NCBI GenBank assembly: GCA_026390315.1
Contig: JAPLGE010000069.1
Span: 1 to 36,703, forward strand
DNA: 36,703 bases
Source of the DNA: Candidatus Bipolaricaulota bacterium
GTDB taxonomy: Bacteria > Bipolaricaulota > Bipolaricaulia > UBA7950 > UBA9294
Reading direction: 5' to 3'
Part shown: positions 18,769 through 34,360 of the stretch, piece after piece
Layout: each line of letters opens with the position of its first letter
How positions within the stretch are numbered: position 1 is the stretch's first letter
Translations under genes and position numbers: made by a program
The notes under the pieces: generated by a model
What the model was told of the DNA's origin: nothing
What the model saw: only the letters and a program-made list of their open reading frames with translations
Databases searched by the model: none

Positions 18769-19971
18769 ATGCTGATTTGGTCCGGGTTTTCTCTCGCCGT
18801 CGTCGCGATGCTCTACCTCTCGCGGAAGAGCCTTTCGCTTGGGATGGCGGTCGGGGCCTTCCTCCTCGCTGCCTTCACCCTTCGGCCGGTCCAGATGCTC
18901 GAGGCGCTCCGCGCGACCTTCGCCGATCCCTCGGTCCTCCTCCTCGCGCTCGTCGTGGGGACGATCCCCATGATCGGCGGCGTGCTCGAGCGTTCGGGGG
19001 AAATGGATCGCCTCGTCGCCAACATGCGGATCGGCACGAAGCCCTTCCTGGCCATCGCGCCCGCCCTGTTGGGACTCCTGCCGATGCCGGGTGGGGCCCT
19101 CCTCTCCGCGCCGCTTCTCGAGCGCGGCGCCCCGCAGGCGGCCGGGGACGTCAAGGCGGCGGCGAACGTCTGGTTTCGCCACACCCTCCTCATCGTGTAC
19201 CCGCTCGGATCGGCGCTGATCGCCGCGGCGAAGATCGCCGAGGTCGACGTCTACCGGTCGATTCCCTACCTCCTTCCGGGATTCCTCTTGATGAGCCTGC
19301 TCGGGTACGTCTTCCTCCTCCGCGGGGTCGCGGGAAGGGCGGAGAATGTCGGCCCCTTCTCTCTTCGCGGTCTCGTCGTCCCGCTCGTCGTCCTCCTTCT
19401 CGCCCCGGCCCTGGACATCGTTCTGAAGAGCGTCTTCGATCTTCCCTACTCGGAGATGAGCACAGCGATCGGGGTCGGAGCGAGCTTGGTGCTCGCGGTC
19501 GGGATCGGCCGCGTCGGGCCAAGCGCCCTCCTGGGGGTCTTCCGCGCGATGCGGCCGTGGAAGTTCTCGCTCATCATCATCGCGGTCTTCGTCTTCCTCA
19601 ACGTGTTCACGGCCTCGGGCGCACCGGAGAGTCTCGCCGCGCTCGCCCTTCCGCCCGCCGTTCTGACGGTTGGCGTCGCCCTCGTCCTCGGCTTTGTCAC
19701 CGGCAGGATCGAGACGCCCGCCTCGATCGTCATCCCGATCTACGTGATGAGCTACGGGTCGATGTCGATCCCGACCTTCGCCGTGACGTACTTCGCGGCC
19801 TTCCTGGGCTACCTCATCACGCCGACCCATCCCTGCATCTCGGTCTCGCTCGAGTACTTCTCGACCTCGCTTTGGGCCTTCTTGCGAAAAACGGCCCTTC
19901 CCTTCGCCATTGCCGTCGCGGTCATCTCGGTCGTCGGGTTCCTCGTGGTGACCGGCCGGTCGGCCGGGTAG
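18769..19971 (+). CDS. DUF401-family integral membrane protein
   Basis: GLLPMPGGALLSAP, NVWFRH, GYLITPTHPC; many TM helices; SD AAGGAG. Confidence 0.85.
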   Translation: MLIWSGFSLAVVAMLYLSRKSLSLGMAVGAFLLAAFTLRPVQMLEALRATFADPSVLLLALVVGTIPMIGGVLERSGEMDRLVANMRIGTKPFLAIAPALLGLLPMPGGALLSAPLLERGAPQAAGDVKAAANVWFRHTLLIVYPLGSALIAAAKIAEVDVYRSIPYLLPGFLLMSLLGYVFLLRGVAGRAENVGPFSLRGLVVPLVVLLLAPALDIVLKSVFDLPYSEMSTAIGVGASLVLAVGIGRVGPSALLGVFRAMRPWKFSLIIIAVFVFLNVFTASGAPESLAALALPPAVLTVGVALVLGFVTGRIETPASIVIPIYVMSYGSMSIPTFAVTYFAAFLGYLITPTHPCISVSLEYFSTSLWAFLRKTALPFAIAVAVISVVGFLVVTGRSAG

Positions 19972-20099: not shown

Positions 20100-21314
20100 A
20101 TGGACAAGATCAAGGTGATCGCCCGCGCCTCGAGCCTTCACGGCTCGCAGGAGATGGCGCGGCTCAAGGCGCGCCTGCTCTCCGAGATCGGAGAGCGGGC
20201 GGACTTCTCCCTCGAGGAGGTCGAGTTCCCGTCCGAGGGAGGGCTCACCGCGATCCTCGTCCTGACTGGAGGGGTCGAGCGGGAGGTGTTGAAGCTCGTC
20301 TCCCAGCTCCCCTCTCCCACGCTCCTCATCGCCCATCCCGGCCACAACTCGCTTCCGGCCTCTCTCGAGGTCCTCGCCCGCATCCGGCAGGATGGAGGGG
20401 AGGGACAGATCCTGTTCGGGACGCCTCAGGCGATCGCGGCGGGGCTGAAGAGGGAGCTGCGCGTCGCGGTGGCCTGGGAGAACCTTCGCTTCAGCCGCGT
20501 CGGCTTGATCGGGGAGCCCTCCGACTGGCTGGTCGCGAGCGACGTCGATCGACCCTTCCTCAAGGGGCAACTCGGGATCGAGCTGATCCCGATCGACATC
20601 GAGGACCTCATCGAGCGGATCCGATCGGTCGCCCCGTCGCGCGGTGACGTGGCGCGGTTCACCAAAGGGGCCGCGATCTTCGGAGAGCCGAGCAAGGACG
20701 GACTCCGGGACGCCGTCTCCGTGTACACCGCACTCCGAGGGCTGGTTGACGAGCACCGCCTGTCCGCCTGTTCGGTGCGCTGCTTCGACCTCGTGACCCG
20801 CCTCCGCACGAGCGGCTGCTACGCCCTGTCGCGCCTGAACGACGAGAGGATCCCCTCCGGCTGCGAAGGGGACCTCCAGGCCTTGTTCTCCATGTACATG
20901 GGAATCCTCCTCTCCGGGGAGTCGGCGTTCATGGGGAACATCGCCTCCGTGGATACGTCGACGCGCTCTGCGACCCTTGCCCACTGCACGTGTCCCCTCT
21001 CGCTCGCGGCAAGCTACGCGATTCGCAGCCACTTCGAGTCGGGGATCGGCGTGGGGATTGGCGCGAAGATCGCGCAGGGTCCATGCACGCTCTTCCGGCT
21101 GGGGGGCGAGCGCCTCGACCACCTCTTCCTCCGTCAGGGAGGGATCGACTCGACGGCCGAGCGCGACGACCTGTGCCGGACGCAGGTCACGGTCACGGCG
21201 AGCGAGCCCCTCGATCCCCTCCTCACCGCGCCGCTTGGGAACCACCACATCCTCCTCCCCGGCCACCACGGGGAGACGATCGAGCGCTTCTTCCATCGGT
21301 TCCTCTCTCCGTGA
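20100..21314 (+). CDS. L-fucose isomerase-like protein
   Basis: TGGVE, HNSLPASLE, CSVRCF, GCEGD, AHCTCP, CRTQ, PLGNHH. Confidence 0.78.
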   Translation: MDKIKVIARASSLHGSQEMARLKARLLSEIGERADFSLEEVEFPSEGGLTAILVLTGGVEREVLKLVSQLPSPTLLIAHPGHNSLPASLEVLARIRQDGGEGQILFGTPQAIAAGLKRELRVAVAWENLRFSRVGLIGEPSDWLVASDVDRPFLKGQLGIELIPIDIEDLIERIRSVAPSRGDVARFTKGAAIFGEPSKDGLRDAVSVYTALRGLVDEHRLSACSVRCFDLVTRLRTSGCYALSRLNDERIPSGCEGDLQALFSMYMGILLSGESAFMGNIASVDTSTRSATLAHCTCPLSLAASYAIRSHFESGIGVGIGAKIAQGPCTLFRLGGERLDHLFLRQGGIDSTAERDDLCRTQVTVTASEPLDPLLTAPLGNHHILLPGHHGETIERFFHRFLSP

Positions 21315-21375
21315 GTTGTGCTCGCCGACGAGGCGGGCTAGACTCTTCTCTAGCTTTCGGGGAGGTGACCGCGGG

Positions 21376-21654
21376 ATGACCGAGCGCCAGATGCAGATTA
21401 CGGCCGACAACGAGGCCCGTCGAGGAGGCTACTCCAACCTCGCCCTCATCTCTCACCGCAAGGAGGAGTTCGTCGTCGACTTCCTGTTCGTCGACCCTCA
21501 GACGCAGGCGGCGAAGGCCGATCAGGCGCTCCTCGTCTCCCGGGTGATCCTCAACCCGGGCCACATGAAGCGGCTCTTCCAGGCGATGGGGGAGAACATC
21601 GAGAAGTACGAGAAGAACTTCGGGAAGATCATTCTCCCCCCCACGCTCAAGTGA
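21376..21654 (+). CDS. DUF3467-family small protein
   Basis: SD GGAGG, ATG 21376; GGYSNLALISH...EFVVDF...SRVILNPGHMKR...YEKNFG. Confidence 0.85.
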   Translation: MTERQMQITADNEARRGGYSNLALISHRKEEFVVDFLFVDPQTQAAKADQALLVSRVILNPGHMKRLFQAMGENIEKYEKNFGKIILPPTLK

Positions 21655-21691
21655 CGGCGTCCCCGCGCGCTGGGGACCCGTCGGAGAACGC

Positions 21692-22939
21692 ATGAGCCCG
21701 ATCGATCGCTTTGTCGACCTGAAGGAACGGGTCCTGAGGACGATCCTGGCGCGGCGGGTGACGCTTGGGGTCTTCGCCGGGGTGGCCCTGGTCGTGAAGT
21801 TCACGAGCGGGATCAGCTACTTGAACCCACTCTACTACACTCCGGTTGCGTGGTTCCTCCTGACCTTCCCCTTCGCCACGCTCGTGCGGCGGCAGAAGAG
21901 CGAGCGCTGGCTCCACTGGGTGCACACCGGTTACTTCCTCGCCGAGATCGCCCTCATCACCCTCTTCGTGCACTGGATGGGCGGAAGCGAGTGGATCGGG
22001 AACATCTTCTACCTCTTCACGGTGATCACCGCGAACTTCTTCCTGCCCCGGATGCAGGGCTACCTCGTGACGGCCGTGGTCATCCTCCTGTACGCAGGGC
22101 TCGCCCTTCTCGAGTACGCCGGCGTCATCCCGCATCGGTCCCTGTTCGCCCTTCTGGGCGAGCCGCATCGCAGCCTCTCTTACACCCTCACGACGATCCT
22201 CGCCGGGGTCGTTGGGGTCTACTTGGTCCTCACGTACACGGTGCGGACGTTCACCGAAATCGACGCGAACAAGAACCGGATGCTCGCGAAGCGAGAGGCC
22301 GAGCTCGCCGCTCTTTCCAACCGCCTCCTCTCGGCTCAGGACGTCGAACGACGCCGGATCGCCCACGAGCTGCACGACACCCTTGGGCAGTCGCTTGCTG
22401 CCGTGAGGCTCCGCCTGGCCGCGCTCCGCGACCGCATCGGCGCGGACGAGCACGAGGCGATGGCCGCGACCGTCGATCAGGCGATTCGGGAGACGCGGAC
22501 ACTCGCCTACTCGCTCCGCCCTCCCCTTCTCGACGACCTGGGCCTCGTTCCGTCGCTTCGCCGACTGGCGGCGATGGTGAGGGAGGGAAGTGGCCTCGAG
22601 GTCCTGCTGGAGCTCGAGGAAGGGGAGCGCCCTTCGGGTGCCGTCGAGAGCCTCCTCTTCTCCGTCGCACAGGAGGCGCTCTCGAACGTGGAGCGCCACG
22701 CGAAGGCGCGCAGGGTCGTGATTCGCCTGCGCCGCCATCCAGGGCGGCTTGGCTTTGAGGTCGAGGACGACGGAGTGGGGTTCCGGCCGGAGGACCGAAG
22801 TGGGCTTGGCTTGCGCGGGATGGTGGAGCGGGTGGAGGCGGCCGGGGGGAGGGTTCACGTCGTCTCCTCTCCCGGCAGCGGGGCACGGATCAGCGTGGAG
22901 GTACCCTGTGAGACCGATCCGGGTCCTCGTTGTGGATGA
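21692..22939 (+). CDS. Membrane sensor histidine kinase (HisKA_3; NarX/UhpB/DesK class)
   Basis: About 6 N-terminal TM helices, H-box ERRRIAHELHD, N-box QEALSNVERHA, G-boxes DDGVGF and GLGLRGM. Confidence 0.93.
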   Translation: MSPIDRFVDLKERVLRTILARRVTLGVFAGVALVVKFTSGISYLNPLYYTPVAWFLLTFPFATLVRRQKSERWLHWVHTGYFLAEIALITLFVHWMGGSEWIGNIFYLFTVITANFFLPRMQGYLVTAVVILLYAGLALLEYAGVIPHRSLFALLGEPHRSLSYTLTTILAGVVGVYLVLTYTVRTFTEIDANKNRMLAKREAELAALSNRLLSAQDVERRRIAHELHDTLGQSLAAVRLRLAALRDRIGADEHEAMAATVDQAIRETRTLAYSLRPPLLDDLGLVPSLRRLAAMVREGSGLEVLLELEEGERPSGAVESLLFSVAQEALSNVERHAKARRVVIRLRRHPGRLGFEVEDDGVGFRPEDRSGLGLRGMVERVEAAGGRVHVVSSPGSGARISVEVPCETDPGPRCG

Positions 22940-23501
22940 TCATGCCCTCGTGCGGCACGGGCTCGTGCGACTGCTCGCCACGTTGGACGGGGTGGAGGTC
23001 GTCGGAGCGGCCGAAGACGGGGAGAGCGCGATCCGCCTCGCGGCGGAAACCCGTCCCGACGTCGTCCTTCTCGACCTCTCCATGCCTCGTCTCGACGGGA
23101 TGAGCGCCCTTCCCCGGCTTCGCGAGGTCGCGCCGGCGAGCCGGGTCCTCGTCCTCAGCATGCACGACGAGCCTGAATACGCGCAGGCGGCCGTCCAGAT
23201 GGGTGCGAGCGGACTCGTCTCCAAGGCGGCGTCGAGCGAGACCCTCTCTGGAGCGATCCGCGCCGTGGCGGCCGGGAAAACCCTCGAGCCGGAGGCCGGC
23301 CTGACGCCGCGCGAGGAGGAGGTCCTCTCTCTCGTGGCCTTCGGCCGGAAGAACGAGGAGATCGCGCGCGCCCTCGGGATCCAGCCCAAGACCGTCGAAC
23401 ACCACTGTGGGCGCCTCATGTCCAAGCTCGGCGTTCGCACGCGCGCCGGGCTCGTGGCCCACGCCAGGAGGATCGGCCTCCGACCGCCCGCGGGCAGTTG
23501 A
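22908..23501 (+). CDS. NarL/FixJ-family response regulator 1
   Basis: GTG 22908 (SD GGAGG); VVDDH, LLDLSMP, LSMH, LuxR-type HTH LTPREEEVL. Confidence 0.93.
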   Translation: MRPIRVLVVDDHALVRHGLVRLLATLDGVEVVGAAEDGESAIRLAAETRPDVVLLDLSMPRLDGMSALPRLREVAPASRVLVLSMHDEPEYAQAAVQMGASGLVSKAASSETLSGAIRAVAAGKTLEPEAGLTPREEEVLSLVAFGRKNEEIARALGIQPKTVEHHCGRLMSKLGVRTRAGLVAHARRIGLRPPAGS

Positions 23502-23551
23502 TACATTCTCCCCATGCCCGCCGGCGAACTTGTAGGTTAGAATGGATCGTG

Positions 23552-24187
23552 ATGAGAGCGATCCGGGTAGTCCTGGGAGACGATCACGTCCTCGTTCGCG
23601 AGGGGATCAAGGCGTGCCTTGAGTCGCCCCGCGTCCTCGTCGTGGGCGAGGCGGAGGACGGGCGGGAGTTGGTGCGGTGCGTGCAGGCCTTGCGTCCTGA
23701 CATCGCGCTCGTCGACGTGTCGATGCCCCTTCTCAATGGGATCGAGGCCACTCGGCAGATCGCGCGGATCTCTCCGGGAACGCGCGTCGTGATCCTCTCC
23801 ATGTTCGACGACAAGGGCACCGTTTCGAGCGCCCGGGATGCCGGCGCCTGGGCCTACGTCCTGAAGGACGAGGCTCCGGATCACCTCGTGCGGACGATCG
23901 AACGCGTCCACGAGGGAGAACGCTCGTTCCCTGCGGGAACGGAGGGCCTCCCGTCCCCCAAGTCGCCCGTCGACCTGACGCCCCGGGAGCGCGAGGTTCT
24001 CCAGCTCGTCGCGGAAGGGATGCGGAGCGCGGAGATGGCGAGGGTCATGAAGCGGAGCGTCTGCACCATTCGGAACCACCGCGCGCGGCTGATGAAGAAA
24101 CTGGGCGTTCGGACGGCGGCGGCGCTTGTGGAGAAGGCCGAGGAACTCGGCGTGGTCCGCCTCGAGGCCGCGCGGAGGAGCGCATGA
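23552..24187 (+). CDS. NarL/FixJ-family response regulator 2
   Basis: LGDDH, LVDVSMP, YVLK, LTPREREVL HTH; stop overlaps the next start (ATGA). Confidence 0.92.
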   Translation: MRAIRVVLGDDHVLVREGIKACLESPRVLVVGEAEDGRELVRCVQALRPDIALVDVSMPLLNGIEATRQIARISPGTRVVILSMFDDKGTVSSARDAGAWAYVLKDEAPDHLVRTIERVHEGERSFPAGTEGLPSPKSPVDLTPREREVLQLVAEGMRSAEMARVMKRSVCTIRNHRARLMKKLGVRTAAALVEKAEELGVVRLEAARRSA

Positions 24188-25173
24188 GCGACCCCGTCGT
24201 GCTGACGCGCCACCGCGCGTTGATCGAGGGAGGGCTCTCCACGGCACTCGCGGGGAGCTCCTTCCTGCACAAGGTCCTTCGCTACCACTTGGGCTTAGAG
24301 GACGAGGACGGGACGCCGCAGCGAAAGACGGGGAAGCTCCTGCGGCCGAGCCTCGCGCTCCATTCTGCGGGCGAGCTGGGAGGCGACCTTGAGAAGGCCC
24401 TTCCCGCCGCGGTGGCCCTCGAGATGGTGCACAACTTCTCGCTCATTCACGACGACATCCAGGACCGCGACGAGACCCGACGAGGACGCGCGGCCGTGTG
24501 GGTGATCCACGGGACGGCGCAGGCGATCAACTCAGGCGACCTCCTCCAGGCCCTCGCTGTCCGCGAGGCCCTGCGCTCCGGGGCGGCGGTCGCGCAGGCC
24601 CTGGTCGAGTCGACCGCCGAGATGATCGAGGGGCAGGCGCTCGACCTCGGCTTCGAGGGGTGCCCGGCCGGCGTCCGCGCGTACGTCGACATGATCGATC
24701 GCAAGACAGGAGCCCTCATTCGATGCGCGTTCCGCATCGGCGGCCTCCTGGCCCTCGCGTCGGGCGACACGCTCGATCGCCTGGACGACCTCGGAAAGCA
24801 CCTCGGGCGCGCCTTCCAGATCCGCGACGACGTGCTCGGGATTTGGGGAAAGGAGGAGGCGACGGGGAAGCCGGCCGGGTCGGACATCCGGCGCCGGAAG
24901 ACGTCGCTTCCGGCGGCGCTTGGCTTCGAGCTCGCTCGGGGCAAGGACCGCGCCATTCTGGAAAGAGTCTACGGACAGGAGGCGGTGACGGACGCGGACG
25001 TGGCCGCGGCCACCCAGGTGCTGGAGCGGCTCGAGGTTCGCGACGAGGCCGAGGGGTGGCTCTCAGAGTCCCTTGGTGCGGCAGAGATCGCCCTAGGGAA
25101 GGCCGGATTCTCCCGCCGAGGGGCCGAGGAGATGGAGGAGCTCTTGACGTACCTGGAGAGAAGAGAGCGATGA
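24184..25173 (+). CDS. Short-chain polyprenyl diphosphate (FPP/GGPP) synthase
   Basis: GKLLRP, first Asp-rich motif NFSLIHDDIQD..RRG, GQALD, KTG, FQIRDD. Confidence 0.92.
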   Translation: MSDPVVLTRHRALIEGGLSTALAGSSFLHKVLRYHLGLEDEDGTPQRKTGKLLRPSLALHSAGELGGDLEKALPAAVALEMVHNFSLIHDDIQDRDETRRGRAAVWVIHGTAQAINSGDLLQALAVREALRSGAAVAQALVESTAEMIEGQALDLGFEGCPAGVRAYVDMIDRKTGALIRCAFRIGGLLALASGDTLDRLDDLGKHLGRAFQIRDDVLGIWGKEEATGKPAGSDIRRRKTSLPAALGFELARGKDRAILERVYGQEAVTDADVAAATQVLERLEVRDEAEGWLSESLGAAEIALGKAGFSRRGAEEMEELLTYLERRER

Positions 25174-26174
25174 GACGGCCGTGGCGGCTCGACCTCCGCA
25201 TGGCGAGGTACCTCCTCGCGCAGAAGGCCAAGCGTCGGACGCACTTCCCGTTCGTCACAATGCTCGAACCGCTCGAGGCGTGCAACCTGCGCTGCGCGGG
25301 GTGCGGCCGGGTGCGCGAGTACGCCGCGGTCATGGACCGCCGCCTCGCGGGCGACGCGTGTCTCGAGGCGGTGCACGCCTCGGGAGCGCCGATTGTCTCT
25401 ATCTCCGGCGGGGAGCCTCTTCTGCACGCGGAGATCGCCGCGATCGCGCGCGCGATCATCGAGGAGAGGCGTTTTGTCTACCTGTGCACGAACGGCCTCC
25501 TGCTCGGGGAGACGCTCGACCGGTTCCGGCCGTCGCCCTACCTCTCGTTCGTCGTCCACCTGGACGGGACCGAGGCGGTACACGACCGCGTGACCGCCCG
25601 GCCCGGGACCTACCGCACGGCGATCGCAGGGATTCGGCAGGCGATCGCGAGAGGCTTCCGCGTCAGCACGAACACGACCCTCTTCCGCGGCTCGGACGTC
25701 GAGGACCTCCACCGCCTCTTCTCGACCCTCACGGCGTTTGGGGTCGAGGGGCTGATGGTCTCCCCCGGCTACGCCTACAGGGACGCAACCGATCAAGGGT
25801 TCTTCCTCGACCGGCAAGAATCGATCGAGGTCTTCCGGCGGGTCCTGGATCCGGCGAAGGGGTATCGGTTCTACAACAACCCCCTCTACCTCGACTTCCT
25901 CCGGGGCGAGCGTGACGTGGACTGCGCCGCCTGGACGACGGTGACCTATACCGTCCTCGGCTGGCGGAAGCCCTGCTACGTCCTCGCGGACGAGCACGTC
26001 GAGGACGTGCAGGAGCTCCTCAATCCGGCTCTCTGGGCGGCGTACGGGCCCGGACGGGACCGTCGCTGCGCGAACTGCATGATGCACTCTTCATTCGAGG
26101 GGGCAAGCATCCTGGAGGCCTTCTCCCGACCGCGCGACCTCCTCACCGTGGCGCGAGAGGAGCGCAGAGGGTGA
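25170..26174 (+). CDS. hpnH: Adenosyl-hopene transferase HpnH (radical SAM)
   Basis: ATG 25170; MLEPLEACNLRCAGC (CxxxCxxC), GGEP, YLCTNG, WRKPCY, RCANCMMHS; lies in the shc operon. Confidence 0.92.
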   Translation: MRRPWRLDLRMARYLLAQKAKRRTHFPFVTMLEPLEACNLRCAGCGRVREYAAVMDRRLAGDACLEAVHASGAPIVSISGGEPLLHAEIAAIARAIIEERRFVYLCTNGLLLGETLDRFRPSPYLSFVVHLDGTEAVHDRVTARPGTYRTAIAGIRQAIARGFRVSTNTTLFRGSDVEDLHRLFSTLTAFGVEGLMVSPGYAYRDATDQGFFLDRQESIEVFRRVLDPAKGYRFYNNPLYLDFLRGERDVDCAAWTTVTYTVLGWRKPCYVLADEHVEDVQELLNPALWAAYGPGRDRRCANCMMHSSFEGASILEAFSRPRDLLTVAREERRG

Positions 26175-26803
26175 TCGTGGTGACCACGTGCTTCTGGGTA
26201 GAGAGAGCCTGGATCCCGCAGCTTCGCGGGGTCCGTCTTGTCCGCACGCCGATGGGCGAGCCGGCGGCGTCGTCGCTCGAGCGGACGATCGGCCAGGAGG
26301 TGCCGGACCTTCTTCTCGCGACGGGCTTCTGCGGCGCGCTCGATCCGCGGCTCGAGGCCGGCGACCTCGTCCTCGCGGAGGGGATCGAGGACCGCGAGGG
26401 GAGGGTTCCGATCGATCGGCTGCTCGCCGATCGGGCCGCATCGGGTCTCGCGGCGCGTGGGATCCCGGCGACGAGGGCGACGCTTCTCGCGGCGCCGGGC
26501 GTCGTGGGGTCGCGCGAGGAGAAGGCGAGGCTTCGCGAAGGCGGGGCCGCGGCGGTCGACATGGAGAGCGGTCCGCTCGCCCGCTTCGCGGCACGACGAG
26601 GCATCCCCTTCCTCGCGCTTCGCGCGGTCCTTGACTCCGCGGGAGAGGATCTCCCCTTCGCGGGGGGCGGGGATCTCGTCCGATCGACCGCCGCGCACCC
26701 GCTCCGCGCGCTCCGGGCGGCTCGCTCCGCCCTCATCGCGGGCCGCGCGCTCGGCCGGGCGGTTCCGGCCGCCCTCGCCGCGGTCGAAGGAGGGCTCGCG
26801 TGA
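26171..26803 (+). CDS. hpnG: Hopanoid-associated nucleoside phosphorylase HpnG
   Basis: GFCGALDPRLEAGDLV, AVDMES, LRAVLD (PNP/MTAN fold); follows hpnH. Confidence 0.85.
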   Translation: MIVVTTCFWVERAWIPQLRGVRLVRTPMGEPAASSLERTIGQEVPDLLLATGFCGALDPRLEAGDLVLAEGIEDREGRVPIDRLLADRAASGLAARGIPATRATLLAAPGVVGSREEKARLREGGAAAVDMESGPLARFAARRGIPFLALRAVLDSAGEDLPFAGGGDLVRSTAAHPLRALRAARSALIAGRALGRAVPAALAAVEGGLA

Positions 26804-27861
26804 CGCGGCGCGCGGTGACCGTCGGAGACGTTCGCATCGGAGGAGGGGCCCCGATCGTCGTTCAGTCCATGACGAACACCGACACGCGCGACGTGGCGGC
26901 GACCGTCGCTCAGATCGCGCTTCTCGAACGAGCCGGGTGCGAGATTGTCCGCGTCGCGGTGCCCGACCGCGCGGCAGGAGAAGCCCTGAAGGAGATCGTC
27001 GGGCGGGCTCCGGTGCCGCTCGTCGCGGACATCCATTTCGACCATCGCCTCGCCCTGCAGGCGATCGAGGCCGGCGTGGCGAAGCTGCGCTTGAACCCGG
27101 GGAACCTCACGGACCGCAGGAAAATCGCAGACATCGTCCGTGCGGCGGGCGAGGCCGGGATCCCGATTCGCGTCGGCGCGAACTCCGGCTCCCTCGCTCG
27201 GAGGTTCCGCGACGCCCACGGGCGGCCGACCGCAGAAGGGCTCGTCTCGAGTGCCCTCGAGGAAGTCCGGCTGCTGGAGGAGCTCGGGTTCGACCAGATC
27301 GTGATCTCGGTCAAGGGCACGGACGTTCCGATGACCGTGGCCGCCTATCGCGACGTCGTGCAGAAGGTCGACTATCCGCTTCACATCGGAATCACCGAGG
27401 CGGGCACGGCCCGGGAGGGGGCGATCCGCTCGTCGGTCGGACTGGGAATCCTCCTCGCGGAAGGGCTCGGAGACACGCTTCGCGTCTCGCTCGCTGCCGA
27501 TCCAGTCGAGGAGGTCCGCGTGGCGTACGAGATCCTGCGGGCCCTCGGCCTGCGGGAGCGGGGGATCTGCTACCGGGTCTGCCCGACGTGCGGCCGGACC
27601 GAGGTAGACCTCGTGAGGATCGCCCGAGAGGTCGAGGAGGCGCTCGTCGACGTGATCCAGCCGCTCACCGTGGCCCTGATGGGGTGCGTGGTGAACGGCC
27701 TGGGCGAGGCCGGGGAGGCGGACGTCGCCCTCGTGGGTGGGCCCCACAGCGGGACGGTGTATGTCGACGGAGAACCGGTCGACCGCGCGGTGCTGGAGGC
27801 GGGCCTCGCGGAAGCCGTGATCCGCGCCGTGCGCGCGAAGGTGGGCTCCCATGACGGCTAG
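26800..27861 (+). CDS. ispG: HMBPP synthase IspG
   Basis: IVVQSMTNT, VADIHF, RLNPGN, PLHIGITEAG, GDTLRVSL, CPTCGR, MGCVVNG. Confidence 0.96.
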   Translation: MTRRAVTVGDVRIGGGAPIVVQSMTNTDTRDVAATVAQIALLERAGCEIVRVAVPDRAAGEALKEIVGRAPVPLVADIHFDHRLALQAIEAGVAKLRLNPGNLTDRRKIADIVRAAGEAGIPIRVGANSGSLARRFRDAHGRPTAEGLVSSALEEVRLLEELGFDQIVISVKGTDVPMTVAAYRDVVQKVDYPLHIGITEAGTAREGAIRSSVGLGILLAEGLGDTLRVSLAADPVEEVRVAYEILRALGLRERGICYRVCPTCGRTEVDLVRIAREVEEALVDVIQPLTVALMGCVVNGLGEAGEADVALVGGPHSGTVYVDGEPVDRAVLEAGLAEAVIRAVRAKVGSHDG

Positions 27862-29791
27862 GGCCGGGCAGGACGTCGCGCCGAGACTCCGTGCGTCGAG
27901 CGAGGCCATCGACCTCGCGGTGGATCGAGCCGTCTCGCACCTCCTCGCGGTTCAAGGCGACGAAGGCTATTGGTGGGGGGAGCTCGAATCGAACGTCACG
28001 ATCACGGCGGAGCACCTCTTCTTGACGCACATCCTGGGCGCCGGCGACGCCGGCGAGTGGGAGAAGATCGCGCGCTATCTTCTCTCGAAGCAGCGGTCCG
28101 ACGGGACCTGGGCGAACTGGTACGACGGGCCGGGGAATCTCTCGACCACGATCGAGGCCTATCTCGCGCTCAAGATGGCGGGGACCTCCGCCGACGCGCC
28201 CGCGATGACGCGCGCCTGCGAGGCGATCCTTTCTTTGGGCGGGATCGAGGAGGCGCGGGTCTTCACGAAGATCTGGCTCGCCCTGCTCGGCGAGTGGGAC
28301 TGGCGGGGAACGCCGGTCCTTCCGCCGGAGCTCGTCCTCCTTCCGGGTTGGTCCCCCCTCAGCATCTACTCCTTCGCCTGCTGGGCCCGCGGGACGATCG
28401 TTCCGATGACGATCATCCGCACGCTTCGGCCGGTCTTCCCCCTCCCGCGCTTCGCGCACGTCGACGAGCTCTTCGTCCGCGGAAGGGAGAGGGCGGAGCT
28501 TGCGCTTCCCCGGTCGCACCGCTCCGCCTGGGCGACGCTCTTCCTCGCGGCGGACCGGGCCTTGCGCGCTACCGAGCGCCTCCCGGTGAAGCCCTTCCGG
28601 CGGCGAGCGATCCGCGCGGCGGAACGGTGGATCGTGGCGCATCAAGAGGAGGACGGCTCCTGGGGCGGGATCCAGCCACCCTGGGTCTACTCGCTCATCG
28701 CGCTTCACGCGCTCGGCTACCCCTCGGAGCACCCCGTGATCCGCCGCGGCCTGGCTGGCTTCACCGGGCCGAAGGGCTTCGCGATCGAGGAAGAGGAGTC
28801 CTTCCGGCTCCAGTCCTGCCTCTCCCCGGTCTGGGACACGGGGCTCGCCATGCTCGCTCTGGAGGAGGCCGGCTTGGCGGAAGACCACCCGGCGCTCGTC
28901 CGGGCCGGCGAATGGCTCCTCGACGAGCAGATCCTCTCCGGCGGAGACTGGCAGGTCCGCTCGTCGGGGCGCCCCGGAGGATGGGCGTTTGAGTTCTCGA
29001 ACGACCTCTACCCGGACACCGACGACGCGGCGATCGTGGTCGCTGCCCTCTCCGGAGCCAAGCTCGACCCGGTGCGGAAGCGCGAGGCGATCGAGCGGGC
29101 CGCCGATTGGCTCCTGGCCATGCAGAGCCGAAACGGCGGTTGGGGGGCCTTCGACCGCAACAACACGCAGTCCTGGTTGCGGGAGATCCCGTTCGCCGAC
29201 TTCGGGGAGATGATCGACCCGCCCTCGGCGGACGTCACGGCGCACATCGTTGAGGTCTTGGGGCGACTCGGCTTCCTCCGCCCCGGCACCCGACGGCTCG
29301 ATCGCGCCCTCCGTTACCTCGAGGGAGAGCAGGAGGCCGACGGGGCGTGGTTCGGACGGTGGGGGGTGAACCTCACGTACGGGATCGGAGCGGTCCTCCC
29401 CGCCCTGGAAGCTGCGGGCGTGCCGGCGGAGGCTCCCGCGGTCCGCCGAGCGGTCGGCTGGCTCCTGGATCATCAGAACGCCGACGGCGGATGGGGGGAG
29501 CGCGTGGAGGGCGTGGATCCGCTCTCCAGGGGTCGCGGACCCTCCACTCCCTCGCAGACGGCCTGGGCCCTCATGGGTCTGATCGCGGCCGGCGAGGGAA
29601 GGCACCCGGCCGCGCAGCGTGGGGCCGAGTTCCTCGTCTCACGCCAGAAGGCCGACGGGAGCTGGGACGAGCCCGAGTTCACGGGGACGGGGTTCCCGAT
29701 CGACTTCATGATCAACTACCACCTCTACCGAGACGTCTTCCCGCTCTTGGCTCTCGGACGCTATCGCAAGGCCGCCGGGGAGGTCGCGTGA
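27851..29791 (+). CDS. shc: Squalene-hopene cyclase (HpnF)
   Basis: Catalytic DTDD, SPVWDT, GGWAFE, several QW repeats (QRSDGTW, QEEDGSW, QNADGGW, QKADGSW), TGTGFP. Confidence 0.97.
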   Translation: MTARAGQDVAPRLRASSEAIDLAVDRAVSHLLAVQGDEGYWWGELESNVTITAEHLFLTHILGAGDAGEWEKIARYLLSKQRSDGTWANWYDGPGNLSTTIEAYLALKMAGTSADAPAMTRACEAILSLGGIEEARVFTKIWLALLGEWDWRGTPVLPPELVLLPGWSPLSIYSFACWARGTIVPMTIIRTLRPVFPLPRFAHVDELFVRGRERAELALPRSHRSAWATLFLAADRALRATERLPVKPFRRRAIRAAERWIVAHQEEDGSWGGIQPPWVYSLIALHALGYPSEHPVIRRGLAGFTGPKGFAIEEEESFRLQSCLSPVWDTGLAMLALEEAGLAEDHPALVRAGEWLLDEQILSGGDWQVRSSGRPGGWAFEFSNDLYPDTDDAAIVVAALSGAKLDPVRKREAIERAADWLLAMQSRNGGWGAFDRNNTQSWLREIPFADFGEMIDPPSADVTAHIVEVLGRLGFLRPGTRRLDRALRYLEGEQEADGAWFGRWGVNLTYGIGAVLPALEAAGVPAEAPAVRRAVGWLLDHQNADGGWGERVEGVDPLSRGRGPSTPSQTAWALMGLIAAGEGRHPAAQRGAEFLVSRQKADGSWDEPEFTGTGFPIDFMINYHLYRDVFPLLALGRYRKAAGEVA

Positions 29792-30645
29792 AGGTCGTGA
29801 AGGCGAACGTCCTCGGGTTCTGCTTCGGCGTCCGGCGTGCCGTGACGATGATCGAGACGGAGCTCGAGAAGTCGGGGGACCTGGCGACCCTGGGGGCGAT
29901 CGTCCACAACACGCACGTCGTCGACGGCCTAGCGAAGAAGGGAGGCCGGCTGGTTCGGACTCTCGACGACGTCCCGGCGGGGGGCGCCGTCGCCATCACG
30001 GCGCACGGCGCGGGGGAGGAGGTATACGAGGAGAGCAAGCGACGGGGGCTCCGCCTGATCGACACGACTTGCCCGATCGTGCGGCGGGCGCAGGAAGCGG
30101 CGGCCAAGCTCGTCGAAGAGGGTTTCTTCGTCGTCCTCTACGGCGAAGCAGAGCACCCGGAAGTGCGGGGGATCCTCTCCTGGACGCGGGGCCAGGGCTT
30201 GGCGACGCACGCTCCGGAGGTCGACGTTCCCATCCCCACGAATGCGAAGGGGATCGCGATCATCGCCCAGACGACCAAGCACCCGGCGCTGTTCGCCGAG
30301 TTCGTCCAGGCCTTGACCAAGCGCTACACCGTGCGCGTGCCGGAGATCCGCATCGTCGACACGACGTGCCCGGAGACCGGCCGTCGCTATCAGGCCGCCC
30401 GCGAGCTGGCCGGAGACGTCGACGTCATGGTCGTGGTCGGGAGTCGGTCCTCGGCCAACACGCGGAAGCTGGCGGAGACGTGCCGTGCCACGGGGAGGCC
30501 GACGTACCACATCGAGTCAGCGTCGGAGATTGACGAGGCGTGGTTCTCGCACGCGAAACGGTTCGGAGTGACGGCGGGGGCGTCGACGCCCGACGACCTG
30601 ATCGACGCCGTGGTCGAACGACTTGAGAAAGGGGGCGGGAGGTGA
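29788..30645 (+). CDS. ispH: HMBPP reductase IspH (LytB)
   Basis: GTG 29788; GFCFGV, IVHN, DTTCPIV, HPEV, QTT, third Cys in DTTCPET, GVTAGASTP. Confidence 0.95.
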   Translation: MKVVKANVLGFCFGVRRAVTMIETELEKSGDLATLGAIVHNTHVVDGLAKKGGRLVRTLDDVPAGGAVAITAHGAGEEVYEESKRRGLRLIDTTCPIVRRAQEAAAKLVEEGFFVVLYGEAEHPEVRGILSWTRGQGLATHAPEVDVPIPTNAKGIAIIAQTTKHPALFAEFVQALTKRYTVRVPEIRIVDTTCPETGRRYQAARELAGDVDVMVVVGSRSSANTRKLAETCRATGRPTYHIESASEIDEAWFSHAKRFGVTAGASTPDDLIDAVVERLEKGGGR

Positions 30646-31169
30646 AGAGAAGAGAAGAACGGGAGGGCGCTCCGCGCCTCCGCTCGACGGCGGCGACGCG
30701 ACCGCGCGCCGAGGAGGAGCCGGCGGTCCAGATCCATCGAGAGGTCGTCCGCAGGACGGCGACGAGGGCAGCCGAGTTCATCGACATCACCGGCGAGGTG
30801 GAACGAATCCTCGGACGCTCCGCCATCCGCGAAGGCTCGGTCTTCGTCTTCTCCCGGCACACGACGGCGGCGATCGTGATCAACGAACACGAGCCGCTCC
30901 TCCTTCACGACATGACGCACTTCCTCGAGCGGACCGTCCCCCGCGAGGGCGACTACCAGCACAACGACTTCACCATCCGGACCGCGAACATGACCGAGGA
31001 CGAGTGCCCGAACGGCCACGCGCACTGTCAGCACCTGGTTCTGGGGACGAGCGAGTGGATCCCCGTCTCGGAGGGGGCGCTCCTGCTCGGGAAGTGGCAG
31101 CGGATCTTCCTCGTCGAGCTCGACCGTCCGCGCGAGCGGGAGGTCGTCGTTCAGGTTCAGGGATGGTAG
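30642..31169 (+). CDS. yjbQ: YjbQ/UPF0047 family protein
   Basis: FIDIT, HTTAAIVINE, NGHAH, LGKWQRIFLVELDRPR; overlaps both ispH and hpnC. Confidence 0.9.
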   Translation: MKRREEREGAPRLRSTAATRPRAEEEPAVQIHREVVRRTATRAAEFIDITGEVERILGRSAIREGSVFVFSRHTTAAIVINEHEPLLLHDMTHFLERTVPREGDYQHNDFTIRTANMTEDECPNGHAHCQHLVLGTSEWIPVSEGALLLGKWQRIFLVELDRPREREVVVQVQGW

Positions 31170-32071
31170 AGGCGCACCTCGCCGCCGTGATCAAGCCGCC
31201 GGACCGCCGGCCGACGGTCGCCGAGGCGGCGGACCTGTGCCTTCGGCTCGCCCGGACGCACTACGAGAACTTCGCGGTCGTCTCGTGGCTCACCCCTCGC
31301 CGGATGAGGGTCCACGTCGCGGCGCTCTACGCCTACTGCCGGACGGTGGACGACCTCGGCGACGAGGCGGCCGGGGACCGCGTGGAGCTCCTCGACCGCT
31401 TCGAGGCGGAGCTTGGCGCCGCCTATCGGGGCGCGGCGCGGCACCCGGTGCTCGTTGCCCTGGAACGGACGATCGAGACGTTCGCGCTCCCCGAGGAGCC
31501 CTTCCGGAAGCTCATCGAGGCGAACCGCATCGACCAAACGAAGCGCCGCTACGCGACTTTTGCCGAGCTCCTCGACTACTGCGACCATTCGGCGAACCCC
31601 GTGGGGCGCCTGTTCCTTCACCTCTTCGGTTACCGTGACGAGGAGAGGCTCGCCCTATCGGACGCAACCTGCACGGCGCTTCAGCTCACGAACTTCTGGC
31701 AGGACCTCCGGCGCGACCACTCGGCGGGGCGGATCTACCTCCCCGAGGACGACCGCGCGGCGTGGGGCGTGTCGGAGGCGGATCTTCTCGCCGCGACGGC
31801 GACGGACGAGCTCCGGGGGTTGATCGAGTCCCTCGTCGAGCGGACGAGGGACTACTTCCGTAAAGGCCTTCCCCTACTCGATCGCGTGCGCGGCCGTCTC
31901 TGGGTCGACCTCGCCCTCTTCTCGCGAGGGGGCCTCGCCATCCTGGAGAAGCTCGAGGAGCAACGGTGGGATCCGCTCAAGAGGAGGCCCGTCCTCTCAG
32001 GCGGCGAGAAGCTCGGCCTCTTCGCGAAGACGCTCGTCTTGCGGGATTGGGAGCGATGGATCGAGCGCTGA
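31163..32071 (+). CDS. hpnC: Hydroxysqualene synthase HpnC
   Basis: ATG 31163; HYENF, YAYCRTVDDLGDE, SANPVGR, LQLTNFWQD. Confidence 0.92.
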   Translation: MVEAHLAAVIKPPDRRPTVAEAADLCLRLARTHYENFAVVSWLTPRRMRVHVAALYAYCRTVDDLGDEAAGDRVELLDRFEAELGAAYRGAARHPVLVALERTIETFALPEEPFRKLIEANRIDQTKRRYATFAELLDYCDHSANPVGRLFLHLFGYRDEERLALSDATCTALQLTNFWQDLRRDHSAGRIYLPEDDRAAWGVSEADLLAATATDELRGLIESLVERTRDYFRKGLPLLDRVRGRLWVDLALFSRGGLAILEKLEEQRWDPLKRRPVLSGGEKLGLFAKTLVLRDWERWIER

Positions 32072-32931
32072 GGGCGAGCTATCGGGCCTGCGCGCGACTG
32101 ACGCGGCGGGAGGCGAGGAACTTCTACCTTGGGTTTGCGACCCTGCCGCGGCGGAAGCGACTCGCGGTCTGTGCCGTGTACGCCTTCTGCCGCGAGGCCG
32201 ACGACATCGCCGACGGAGAGACCCCACTCGAGACGAAGAAGGCCGGGCTCGCCGAGCTGCGGGGCCGCCTCGCGCAAGCCGCCTCCGGAGCGCCGTCCGG
32301 TGAGAGAGACCTCGCCTTGGCGGACGCGATCGCGCGATTCTCCGTGGATCCGCAGGACCTCGCGGACGTGGTCGCGGGCGTCGAGATGGACCTTCGGGCC
32401 ACGCGCGTCGCGACGTACGCCGAACTCCGGCGCTACGCCGAGCTTGTGGCTTCGGCCGCGGGCCTCGCGATCCTTCCCGTCCTCGCGTGGAGGCGAGGCG
32501 GCGCCCGGGTCACGCCCCAGGCTCGGGCCGCGGCGGTGGAGCTTGGGGTGGGAATGCAGCTCGTGAACGTCCTCCGCGACGTGAAGGAGGATGCGGAGCG
32601 CGGCCGGATCTACCTTCCCCGGGAAGACCTGGTACGGTTCGACGTGACCGAGGAGGCGCTCTCTTGCGGGGTGATCGAAGGGGGGACCCGCGCGCTCCTT
32701 GCCTTCGAAGCCGAGCGGGCGCGTGAGGCCCTGAAGAAGGCTTCGGACCTCGCGTCGCGCCTCCCCCGCCACGCGCGCGGCTGCCTGGCCCTTCTTGGCG
32801 CGATCTACTCCCGCCTCCTCGATCGGATCGACGCCCGCGGCTACGACGTGTTCGGCCCGCGGATCTGCCTCACGGGCGGGGAGAAGCTCTGGCTCTTCGT
32901 CCGAACCTACCTCCGCGCGACCTTCCGATGA
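32056..32931 (+). CDS. hpnD: Presqualene diphosphate synthase HpnD
   Basis: ATG 32056; NFYLGF, YAFCREADDIAD, MQLVNVLRDVKEDAERGRIYLP; lies between hpnC and hpnE. Confidence 0.88.
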   Translation: MDRALRASYRACARLTRREARNFYLGFATLPRRKRLAVCAVYAFCREADDIADGETPLETKKAGLAELRGRLAQAASGAPSGERDLALADAIARFSVDPQDLADVVAGVEMDLRATRVATYAELRRYAELVASAAGLAILPVLAWRRGGARVTPQARAAAVELGVGMQLVNVLRDVKEDAERGRIYLPREDLVRFDVTEEALSCGVIEGGTRALLAFEAERAREALKKASDLASRLPRHARGCLALLGAIYSRLLDRIDARGYDVFGPRICLTGGEKLWLFVRTYLRATFR

Positions 32932-34229
32932 GAGAGGCGATCGTTGTCGGCGGCGGAGCCGCGGGGACGAGCGCTGCCGCCTCTCTCGCCGAGCGAGGGA
33001 TCCGCGTCCTCCTGCTCGAGCGGTCGGCTCGCCTGGGAGGGAGGGCGGCATCGTTCTCGTTTGAGAGACGCGGGGAGGAGGTAGACACCGGCGAGCACGT
33101 CCTCTTGCGCTGCTGCACGGAGGTCGTGGCGCTTCTCGCGCAGCTTGGAGTTGAGGAGAGCGTCGCGTTCCAGCCGAGGCTCCGTGTTCCGATGCGGAGC
33201 GGATCGCGTCGGACGGTCCTCCGCTCGAGTCCCCTTCCCGGGCCGCTCCACCTTCTCCCGGGCCTCCTTGGCTACAACCTACTCCATGTCCGGGAGCGGT
33301 GGCGGGCCGTGGGGACGGCGGCCCGGCTTCTCTTGGGAGGATCGAGTCAAGAGGAGACGTTCCGCGACTGGCTCGAGCGGCGAGGCGAGTCGCGCGCGGC
33401 GATCGAGAGGCTGTGGGATCCGATCTCCGTCGCCACGCTGAACGCCCACGCGAACACGGCGCGGCTCGACCTCGCGGCCAAGGTCTTCCGTGACGCCTTC
33501 TCGAGGCCCCACGGCGCAGACCTTGGCTTCTTCACGCGGCCCCTGTCCCGCGTCTTTTCGGCGATCGTCCTCTACCTTGCCGCGCGGGGCGGAGCGGTGC
33601 GCCTCGGCGCGCGGGTCGACGCGATCCTCGCGAACGGCGGCGCCGTGCGCGGCGTGCGGCTTGCGACCGGCGAGGTCCTGGAGAGCGACGCGGTCGTCGC
33701 GGCGGTCCCTCCCTTCGACCTGGGACGGCTCCTTCCCCGCGAGGCCGTGGGCGACGCGTACCTCGCCGGGCTCGGCCGGCTGCGGTGGGCGCCCATCGTG
33801 AACGTCCACCTGTGGTTTGACCGGCCGGTGCTCGAAGACCCGTTCACCGTGTGCGTCGACTCCCGCCTCCAAGCGGTCTTCGACGTCTCGCGGCTCCACA
33901 ACCAGACGGGCGCGACGCACCTCGTCCTCTCGCAGAGCGCGGCGGAGGAGTGGCTCTCCCTCTCCCCGGCCGAGATCGAGGTGGCGCTCCTTCCGGAGCT
34001 GCGCCGCGCCTTTCCCGAGGGGGAGGGCGCGAAGCGCCTCGACGCGCTCGTGGTGAAGCATCCGCGCGCGACCTGGGTCCCCGGGCCGGGAAGCGAGAGG
34101 GATCGGCTGTCTCCGCTCACCCCGATTCGCGGGCTCGTCCTCGCCGGAGACGCGACGACGACCGGCTGGCCGTCGACGCTCGAAGGGGCGGTGCGGTCCG
34201 GGCGGACCGCGGCTGGGCTCCTCCTCTGA
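32928..34229 (+). CDS. hpnE: Hydroxysqualene dehydroxylase HpnE
   Basis: GGGAAG dinucleotide fold, LGGRA, DTGEH, PIVNVHLWFD, LAGD..TGWPSTLEGAVRSG. Confidence 0.9.
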   Translation: MREAIVVGGGAAGTSAAASLAERGIRVLLLERSARLGGRAASFSFERRGEEVDTGEHVLLRCCTEVVALLAQLGVEESVAFQPRLRVPMRSGSRRTVLRSSPLPGPLHLLPGLLGYNLLHVRERWRAVGTAARLLLGGSSQEETFRDWLERRGESRAAIERLWDPISVATLNAHANTARLDLAAKVFRDAFSRPHGADLGFFTRPLSRVFSAIVLYLAARGGAVRLGARVDAILANGGAVRGVRLATGEVLESDAVVAAVPPFDLGRLLPREAVGDAYLAGLGRLRWAPIVNVHLWFDRPVLEDPFTVCVDSRLQAVFDVSRLHNQTGATHLVLSQSAAEEWLSLSPAEIEVALLPELRRAFPEGEGAKRLDALVVKHPRATWVPGPGSERDRLSPLTPIRGLVLAGDATTTGWPSTLEGAVRSGRTAAGLLL

Positions 34230-34331: not shown

Positions 34332-34360
34332 TTGACACCCTCGAAGAGGTGCGCTAGGAT
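34332..34360 (+). promoter_or_regulatory. Sigma70 promoter for the aconitase operon
   Basis: Consensus TTGACA (34332-34337), 17-nt spacer, TAGGAT (34355-34360). Confidence 0.8.

Follow-up and report, generated by a model that had tools for sequence, protein, structure and literature searches.

A two-component system joined to the hopanoid operon of Bipolaricaulota as a candidate dedicated regulator of isoprenoid and hopanoid synthesis

How bacteria set the level of their hopanoids is poorly understood, and the locus described here raises the question of whether a hopanoid operon might carry a regulatory system of its own. The window, by which we mean the whole 36,703-nt stretch of DNA that was analysed (the forward strand of contig JAPLGE010000069.1 in assembly GCA_026390315.1, from a Candidatus Bipolaricaulota bacterium), contains genes for a sensor histidine kinase (HK) and two response regulators (RR1 and RR2) that run directly into genes for isoprenoid and hopanoid synthesis; it is contig C35 of a 1.76-Mb metagenome-assembled genome with 223 contigs, 91% completeness and ca. 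67% G+C. We think it probable, from comparison of sequences, that these genes form a dedicated two-component system which modulates an activator-dependent isoprenoid/hopanoid promoter in the Bipolaricaulota. An earlier interpretation made from the letters of the window (the sequence-only reading) had proposed a dedicated circuit for the hopanoid operon, and this is partly supported overall: the regulatory link is well supported comparatively because the linkage holds in 39 of 41 loci and in four families, and because a genome-unique box lies between the regulators and the operon.

Protein domains and families were assigned using Pfam and NCBIfam profiles with their cut-offs, and gene junctions were read directly from the sequence. 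The features of the locus are as follows.

21692..22939, plus strand: sensor histidine kinase (HK), 415 aa (Pfam HisKA_3 and HATPase_c; hydropathy; AlphaFold2 model)
22908..23501, plus strand: RR1, NarL/FixJ-type response regulator, 197 aa (Response_reg and GerE)
23498..23516, plus strand: conserved promoter-proximal box, TTGATACATTCTCCCCATG (upstream alignment and position weight matrix (PWM) scans)
23538..23543, plus strand: -10-like hexamer TAGAAT (position kept in orthologous loci)
23552..24187, plus strand: RR2, NarL/FixJ-type response regulator, 211 aa, first operon gene (Response_reg and GerE)
24184..25173, plus strand: pps, polyprenyl diphosphate synthase of the farnesyl/geranylgeranyl diphosphate (FPP/GGPP) type (PF00348, polyprenyl_synt, E 6e-58)
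25170..26174, plus strand: HpnH, adenosyl-hopene transferase, a radical SAM protein with DUF3463 (TIGR03470 at 402.9 bits, cut-off 225)
26171..26803, plus strand: HpnG-like phosphorylase (PNP_UDP_1; TIGR03468, 113.9 bits, below the cut-off of 187.1)
26800..27861, plus strand: IspG (GcpE) of the methylerythritol phosphate (MEP) pathway (Pfam GcpE; NCBIfam above cut-off)
27851..29791, plus strand: squalene-hopene cyclase, shc (TIGR01507 at 809 bits, cut-off 431; SQHop_cyclase N and C)
29788..30645, plus strand: IspH (LytB) of the MEP pathway (Pfam LYTB; NCBIfam above cut-off)
30642..31169, plus strand: UPF0047/YjbQ-family protein, 175 aa (PF01894, E 6e-37; TIGR00149 above cut-off)
31163..32071, plus strand: HpnC, squalene synthase step (TIGR03464 at 325 bits, cut-off 250; SQS_PSY)
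32056..32931, plus strand: HpnD-like presqualene diphosphate synthase (SQS_PSY; TIGR03465, 250.6 bits, below the cut-off of 278.6)
32928..34229, plus strand: HpnE, hydroxysqualene dehydroxylase, last operon gene (TIGR03467 at 374.5 bits, cut-off 283; Amino_oxidase)

RR1 starts at a GTG (22908) placed behind GGAGG and overlaps the end of HK by 32 nt, and its stop codon (23499–23501) is followed by a 50-nt intergenic gap before the ATG of RR2 (23552, with an alternative GTG at 23549). After RR2 the gene order is pps-hpnH-hpnG-ispG-shc-ispH-UPF0047-hpnC-hpnD-hpnE, with the ten junctions from RR2 to hpnE overlapping by 4, 4, 4, 4, 11, 4, 4, 7, 16 and 4 nt. The sequence-only reading had described a HisKA_3 kinase with about six transmembrane (TM) helices overlapping RR1, which is borne out by the Pfam matches, hydropathy, the AlphaFold2 model and the 32-nt overlap, as well as an ATGA (24184–24187) joining the RR2 stop to the pps start, which is plain from the sequence. 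The unbroken chain that it drew from there to hpnE holds if the open reading frame (ORF) at 30642–31169, the UPF0047 gene that was absent from the earlier list, is counted. The operon had also been called a complete hopanoid operon: Shc, HpnCDE, HpnH and HpnG are together in one cluster, with Shc, HpnH, HpnC and HpnE above equivalog cut-offs (the HpnD and HpnG profiles scored below theirs, yet each was the top NCBIfam match for its protein), and completeness can be granted for the synthesis of squalene, its cyclisation and the first steps of the side chain, further hpn genes not having been searched for.

Linkage between the two-component genes and the cluster was assessed in a set of 61 related genomes (including G000), for which HK and shc counts were taken from match tables. 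A full-length HK orthologue is present in 44 genomes, kinase-core matches only in seven more, and shc in 43. The two genes occur together in 42 genomes, HK alone in two, shc alone in one (G014, as fragments) and neither in 16; in the HK-only genomes, the contig ends after pps (G017) or the cluster breaks after an ispG fragment (G016). As 14 of the 16 genomes lacking both HK and shc keep ispH, their joint absence is not simply the result of a missing contig. HK and shc are found on one contig and strand, 4.8–6.5 kb apart, in 29 of the 42 genomes, while seven have a cluster divided among contigs and in six f7 genomes shc lies elsewhere with HK and ispH remaining on one contig. All 20 loci that were fetched have the order HK–RR(s)–pps–hpnH, followed by more cluster genes where the contig permits, and the linkage is kept across four families (f1, f4, f6 and f7) with differing flanks. 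The content of the cluster varies: some loci have no ispG, those of f6 and f4 have no hpnCDE, and those of f7 have no shc. Wherever the locus is complete, the two-component genes are accompanied by pps-hpnH-hpnG and then by ispH-UPF0047. Since the genes upstream of HK in the window (unk404, DUF3467 and DUF401) are common only within f1, the conserved unit starts at HK.

A scan of species representatives, with one genome per species, gave 79 loci of which 53 are orthologues that include the TM domain; these overlap with the 20 fetched loci and the two sets are not independent. All 53 are labelled Bipolaricaulota, Acetothermia or 'uncultured Thermotogae'. Where at least 3 kb of downstream sequence was available, 39 of 41 orthologue loci carry a regulator and hpn genes, and the two exceptions (L073 and L074) are without regulator or hpn genes in the ca. 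4.3–4.5 kb before the locus end. Outside the phylum there were 26 hits, all confined to the kinase core, and none of them is near an hpn gene. The check on synteny that had been suggested for the HK and both regulators therefore comes out on the side of linkage, with 39 of the 41 informative loci and four families in agreement.

Between RR1 and RR2 we found a second line of evidence in the form of a box of ca. 19 bp (23498–23516), which begins at the RR1 stop and 54 nt before the RR2 start and which has, in the upstream alignment, a conserved core of T-R-C followed after 3–5 nt by YCCC. Some 20 nt after the box is a -10-like hexamer, located in the window 8 nt before the RR2 ATG, and in orthologous loci this takes the form of TAGAAT, TACAAT, TAAACT or TACGAT and ends 7–9 nt before the start codon. 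RR2 starts without a Shine-Dalgarno sequence, and the box, the hexamer and this type of start recur at fixed spacing across loci (in f6 the spacing fits if a second in-frame start, 9 nt downstream, is used). No -35 element was found before RR2, and a sigma-70 pattern scan found no full promoter in 20900–24400. From this we infer that the promoter depends on an activator and yields an operon transcript that is leaderless or nearly so; the box would then lie at about -54 to -36, and we regard it as a candidate regulator-binding site.

When the whole of the window's own genome was scanned with a PWM made from 14 f1 instances, the window box scored 31.9 bits and the next best match 20.8 bits (this second-best site, C101:5382, is inside a plus-strand ORF and was treated as chance). 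A second PWM was used to scan 682 kb on both strands and ranked the pre-RR2 site top in 41 of 43 further RR2-bearing loci with no other match above 15.5 bits, though it should be noted that this PWM was trained on 39 sites that it then finds, and that uniqueness alone is independent. In f4, where a single regulator comes directly after HK, the box and a TAAAAT hexamer are found 59 nt before pps, and in the f7 locus L021 there are two weaker tandem boxes between HK and the regulator gene. The box thus tracks the first gene of the hpn operon, whichever gene that is. The sequence-only reading had suggested a search for shared sites upstream of 21692 and 23552; the box lies before RR2, and no such site was found before 21692. 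Box-like strings noticed by eye before HK in L009, L010 and L015 were below the PWM threshold and were dropped.

An RNA element was also considered for the RR1–RR2 and DUF3467–HK gaps and rejected, as neither folds better than shuffled sequences (z -0.48 and -1.23). The stem seen at the window box is not kept in other loci, and the box region has no match to an Rfam family. With no significant or conserved fold and no Rfam match, a DNA site is the more likely nature of the box. The DUF3467–HK gap does contain a GC-rich hairpin (-22.3 kcal/mol, no better than shuffles) which lacks a T-run.

Both regulators are of the NarL/FixJ type, with PF00072 and PF00196 above cut-off in each, and they share 40% identity. 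The receiver acidic pocket is kept in both: D10, D11, D56 and K106 of RR1 are conserved in 47/47 aligned sequences, and D55 and K105 of RR2 in 44/44. The genome as a whole has only two HisKA_3 kinases and three GerE regulators, with the remaining kinase/regulator pair on contig C218. In a midpoint-rooted maximum-likelihood tree of 48 rows (L042_RR1 and L071_RR1 were mis-extracted, each being the RR2 of its own locus, and were disregarded), RR1 forms a separate clade (support 98/92) and RR2 groups with the single regulator of f7 (98/94), and the single regulator of f4 has no resolved placement. The tree identifies RR2 as the component common to f1, f6 and f7 and RR1 as an addition, and suggests that RR2 is the ancestral regulator, embedded in the operon; RR1 could act as a second output, a co-activator or a phosphate sink. 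We tried to assign the box binder by setting the recognition helices against the box variants, and this gave no answer because both helices change between f1 and f6.

The HK is a HisKA_3-class sensor histidine kinase by domain criteria, with matches to HisKA_3 (PF07730, 47.9 bits against a cut-off of 24, E 1.9e-12) and HATPase_c (PF02518, 50.1 bits against 26.4, E 4.4e-13) as well as the conserved phospho-acceptor histidine. This is His228 in an LHD motif, and H228, N332, D359, G361 and G363 are invariant in 40 HK sequences (some HK orthologues were flagged with internal stops, but the idea that these are pseudogenes was rejected as the stops are natural C-terminal stop codons read through). 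Hydropathy and an AlphaFold2 model made from 40 orthologues (mean pLDDT 80, pTM 0.50) agree on six TM helices at ca. 3–39, 46–67, 71–96, 102–117, 120–143 and 162–185, with a cytoplasmic N-terminus, no extracytoplasmic domain, and loops of no more than eight residues except for the outside loop 142–163. In the predicted structure, TM6 and the DHp helix are a single continuous helix (162–247) that carries His228. Given the absence of an external domain and this continuity of TM6 with the DHp helix, the HK would most likely read a cue inside the membrane.

Matches between the HK and solved structures, whether by sequence or by Foldseek against the PDB, are confined to the cytoplasmic core, with VraS and DesK the best (E ca. 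1e-14 to 1e-10, 25–31% identity; for DesKC, E ca. 1e-13 and 25–27%). The sensor part most resembles the 6TM_PilS family (PF25323), for which the HK scores below the 27-bit cut-off (19.5 bits for the whole protein, 22.5 for residues 1–203, and 21.4 in the genome search); several close orthologues carry a precomputed PF25323 match and the nearest protein-atlas clusters are PF25323 (score 0.95, 208 shared features). We therefore describe the sensor as PilS-like by resemblance and not as a firm member of PF25323. About 20 TM-region positions are invariant in the 40 HK sequences, many of them polar, including R21, W54, H78, E85, G97, G98, W101, G103, Y107, N115, T127, E141, T168 and G172, with a loop motif of GG-x-x-W-x-G. 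A HMMER search with HK residues 1–200 returned 252 representative clusters at E <= 0.001, and in the 20 of these that were scanned the sensor domain is fused to HisKA_3 (2), HisKA (6), GGDEF (2), adenylate cyclase (1) or SpoIIE (1), with one having PAS only and seven, of 278–300 aa, being without an output domain (one of these seven has a 6TM_PilS match). Going by its fusion to such diverse outputs, the six-TM domain behaves like a modular membrane input domain and not a mere anchor. None of the NCBIfam cut-offs for the named systems MctSR, NarXL, LiaSR and UhpBA was reached by HK, RR1 or RR2, the best matches being to MctS (150.8 bits against 700) and MctR (170 and 149 against 300), with coverage of HK limited to the core.

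Taken together, we propose a circuit in which the HK would read an intramembrane cue and set the phosphorylation of RR2 and RR1, as the coupling of the genes and the intact receiver sites suggest. A phosphorylated regulator would then bind the box and recruit RNA polymerase to the -35-less promoter, and RR2 is favoured for this role because it is common to f1, f6 and f7. Judging from the conserved architecture, this promoter would drive an RR2-pps-hpnH-hpnG-ispG-shc-ispH-UPF0047-hpnCDE transcript, and as RR2 is downstream of its own box and would be made with the pathway, positive autoregulation is to be expected. By tblastn, the pps, ispG and ispH genes of the operon are the sole copies in the 91%-complete genome, which places the essential isoprenoid supply behind the putatively regulated promoter and means that this is not purely a hopanoid operon. 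It also implies that the system tunes flux rather than acting as an on/off switch, or else that further promoters must exist, and control is probably modulatory.

What the HK might sense can be approached through two known kinases that lack an extracytoplasmic domain. The sequence-only reading drew an analogy with DesK/DesR of Bacillus subtilis, in which the kinase detects membrane thickness and controls a lipid-modifying gene (PMC11237406, PMC8301901). On this basis the TM bundle would measure the thickness, order or fluidity of the bilayer, and hopanoid synthesis would restore membrane order, and we consider this a possible though tentative explanation, membrane state being one among several conceivable inputs. 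The two systems are alike in combining a HisKA_3 kinase with NarL-type regulation, in having a last TM helix that runs on into the DHp helix (here in the AlphaFold2 model), and in acting, here putatively, on adjacent genes whose products alter the lipids of the membrane; the DesK core is also one of the two best structural matches. This part of the analogy, which is to say the HisKA_3 cytoplasmic core, the DesKC match and the TM6–DHp continuity, holds, but it does not extend to the sensor, as DesK has five TM helices (PMC8301901) and the HK has six and is PilS-like. The PF25323 profile found no match in the B. subtilis control genome, and solved DesK structures cover the cytoplasmic part only. 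The pattern of invariant and often polar TM-region residues is also easier to reconcile with a specific site than with a generic hydrophobic ruler. The two systems also differ in that two regulators are found here, one of them encoded at the head of an 11-gene operon, and in the pathway concerned, which is isoprenoid/hopanoid synthesis here and acyl desaturation (the des desaturase) in DesK/DesR.

The other comparison is with PilS/PilR of Pseudomonas aeruginosa, which shares with the HK a six-TM sensor domain without a periplasmic domain and has given its name to the nearest Pfam model. The six TM segments of PilS sense the membrane pool of PilA, the product of its own regulon (PMC6058289), which makes the sensing of a product or intermediate as reasonable here as the sensing of membrane state. 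The six-TM domain would then bind a hopanoid, squalene or polyprenyl lipid and tune its own operon, a suggestion we hold to be somewhat doubtful. The resemblance of the sensor to PilS and its highly conserved, polar TM positions are in keeping with this, as are the use of the domain as a modular input for GGDEF, adenylate cyclase, SpoIIE and HisKA outputs and the position of a regulator inside the operon that it is presumed to control. However, the PF25323 matches are all sub-cut-off, and PilS senses a protein (pilin) rather than a lipid; PilS also differs in having a HisKA-type DHp and a sigma-54 activator as partner, where the system described here has HisKA_3 and NarL-type regulators. We give equally guarded credence to the more specific suggestion that the six-helix domain directly senses the amount of hopanoid or squalene in the membrane, with feedback on the operon through RR2.

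Before settling on a dedicated system, the explanation that there is no regulatory link must be weighed, according to which the two-component genes merely travel with the cluster while their targets lie elsewhere, and the box serves another factor or is a promoter element of a different sort. Several of our results weigh against a dedicated circuit. Adjacency by itself is no proof of regulation, and the genomes compared are kin in which the f1 upstream genes are also syntenic, leaving about four informative lineages. No recurrent box was found before HK when the window region and 51 loci were scanned with PWMs, and the box would thus not account for the expression of HK and RR1. The box has no obvious dyad symmetry, and NarL-type dimers often prefer dyad-symmetric sites. 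L076 and L077 have RR2 but no box of at least 11 bits, and to these should be added the partial circularity of the second PWM mentioned above. RR1 and RR2 have different recognition helices, both of which change between f1 and f6, and the box-binding regulator is not distinguishable by them. The HK model has a pTM of just 0.50. Finally, the essential MEP genes need constitutive expression, and with the sole ispG, ispH and pps located in the operon (in a genome that is 91% complete) it cannot be strictly inducible. Against the absence of a link stand the persistence of the linkage through cluster rearrangements in four families, the genome-unique box that is always between regulator and operon, the absence of HK from the 16 shc-less relatives of which 14 keep ispH, and a genome with only three GerE regulators, and we consider mere co-travel to be improbable. 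It is very unlikely that the cluster makes a secreted bioactive terpenoid and that the system answers competitors or cell density, for while the preprint on the Bipolaricaulota isolate J31 (10.1101/2025.11.21.689855) lists a homologous cluster with a 'response regulator transcription factor' in its Fig. S12 legend, labels it terpenoid biosynthetic and links it to an antibacterial compound, the part of the preprint drawn on here gives no genetic link between compound and cluster, and shc, hpnH, the hpnG-like gene and hpnCDE are the standard bacteriohopanepolyol set by NCBIfam.

A number of further observations concern the surroundings of the locus and its variants. In the window, HK is preceded by genes for DUF401 (18769–19971), a 404-aa protein (unk404, 20100–21314, without a Pfam match and with a weak sub-cut-off match to sulfoquinovose isomerase) and DUF3467 (21376–21654), the synteny of which is kept only within f1. 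At the other end, a near-consensus sigma-70 promoter at 34332–34360 (TTGACA, a 17-nt spacer and TAGGAT; 10/12 consensus) upstream of an aconitase gene marks the next transcription unit and thus the end of the operon, and provides a reference for an activator-independent promoter in this genome. The UPF0047/YjbQ gene, of the 'secondary thiamine-phosphate synthase' family, overlaps ispH on one side and hpnC on the other and keeps its place after ispH in the related clusters of all four families; a second copy, 35% identical, is on contig C196.

Among the related loci, L089 has a minus-strand MacB-type ABC efflux operon (L089:10237–14606, with OEP, HlyD, ABC ATPase and MacB/FtsX permease genes) between HK and RR1 and divergent from RR1, and in L074 the same MacB/ABC/HlyD/OEP operon follows HK; L073 has no match to it among the matches listed. 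The insertion, which is found in one subclade, may represent an additional target of the system or serve in lipid export. In the f7 locus L022 a gene for an NAD-dependent epimerase/dehydratase, possibly HpnA-like, is found between hpnG and ispG (L022:7869–8879) in the place that shc takes in other families, and L021 has an equivalent gap of ca. 1 kb; the shc of f7 is on another contig. The clusters of L015, L017 and L018 (f6) and of L016 (f4) end at UPF0047, without hpnC, hpnD or hpnE in the next 1.5–6 kb. L019 (G016:C1:147000–165000) comes from a genome that is one contig and 69% complete; here the cluster goes no further than hpnH and an N-terminal ispG fragment (residues 1–86, inside a longer open frame), and shc and ispH were not found. 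This break may be a rearrangement or an assembly join.

A full-text literature search found no description of an hpn cluster with a regulator of its own, whether encoded within it or devoted to it. Among the nearest reports is that on BesRS of Burkholderia thailandensis, the regulon of which includes a putative hopanoid operon with a candidate regulator box where binding is unverified, but as described in that paper BesRS differs in having a broad envelope-stress regulon (penL, efflux and catabolic operons) and in not being placed beside the hopanoid genes (PMC9426598). EdsRS of Bacillus anthracis activates cardiolipin synthesis and is alike in that a membrane or envelope signal alters the transcription of lipid-synthesis genes, and differs in the class of lipid (PMC7157781). 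A 2025 preprint on the distribution of hopanoid genes reports a statistical association with KdpDE, with the Bipolaricaulota not mentioned in the part of it cited here (PMC12324291), and the J31 preprint, which describes the first cultured member of the Bipolaricaulota, makes no regulatory claim for the homologous cluster in the part used here (10.1101/2025.11.21.689855). An intramembrane HisKA_3/NarL system that controls a lipid pathway is already known, and what is new is the putative hopanoid/isoprenoid target, the type of sensor, the operon-embedded layout with two regulators and the ca. 19-bp box.

The system is compact and testable, consisting of one kinase, two regulators, one box of ca. 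19 bp and one promoter, and it is conserved across a phylum that has a cultured member. If the sensor reads the state of the membrane or its hopanoid content, this would show how a sterol surrogate is kept balanced and would assign a role to a modular six-TM input domain found on many signalling outputs. Were the sensing of hopanoid or squalene to prove true, this deep-branching anaerobic phylum would have, for a sterol surrogate, a counterpart to the sensing of sterol levels in eukaryotes. Under such a circuit hopanoid production would be conditional and not constitutive, which matters for the reading of hopanoid biomarkers from anaerobic subsurface lineages.

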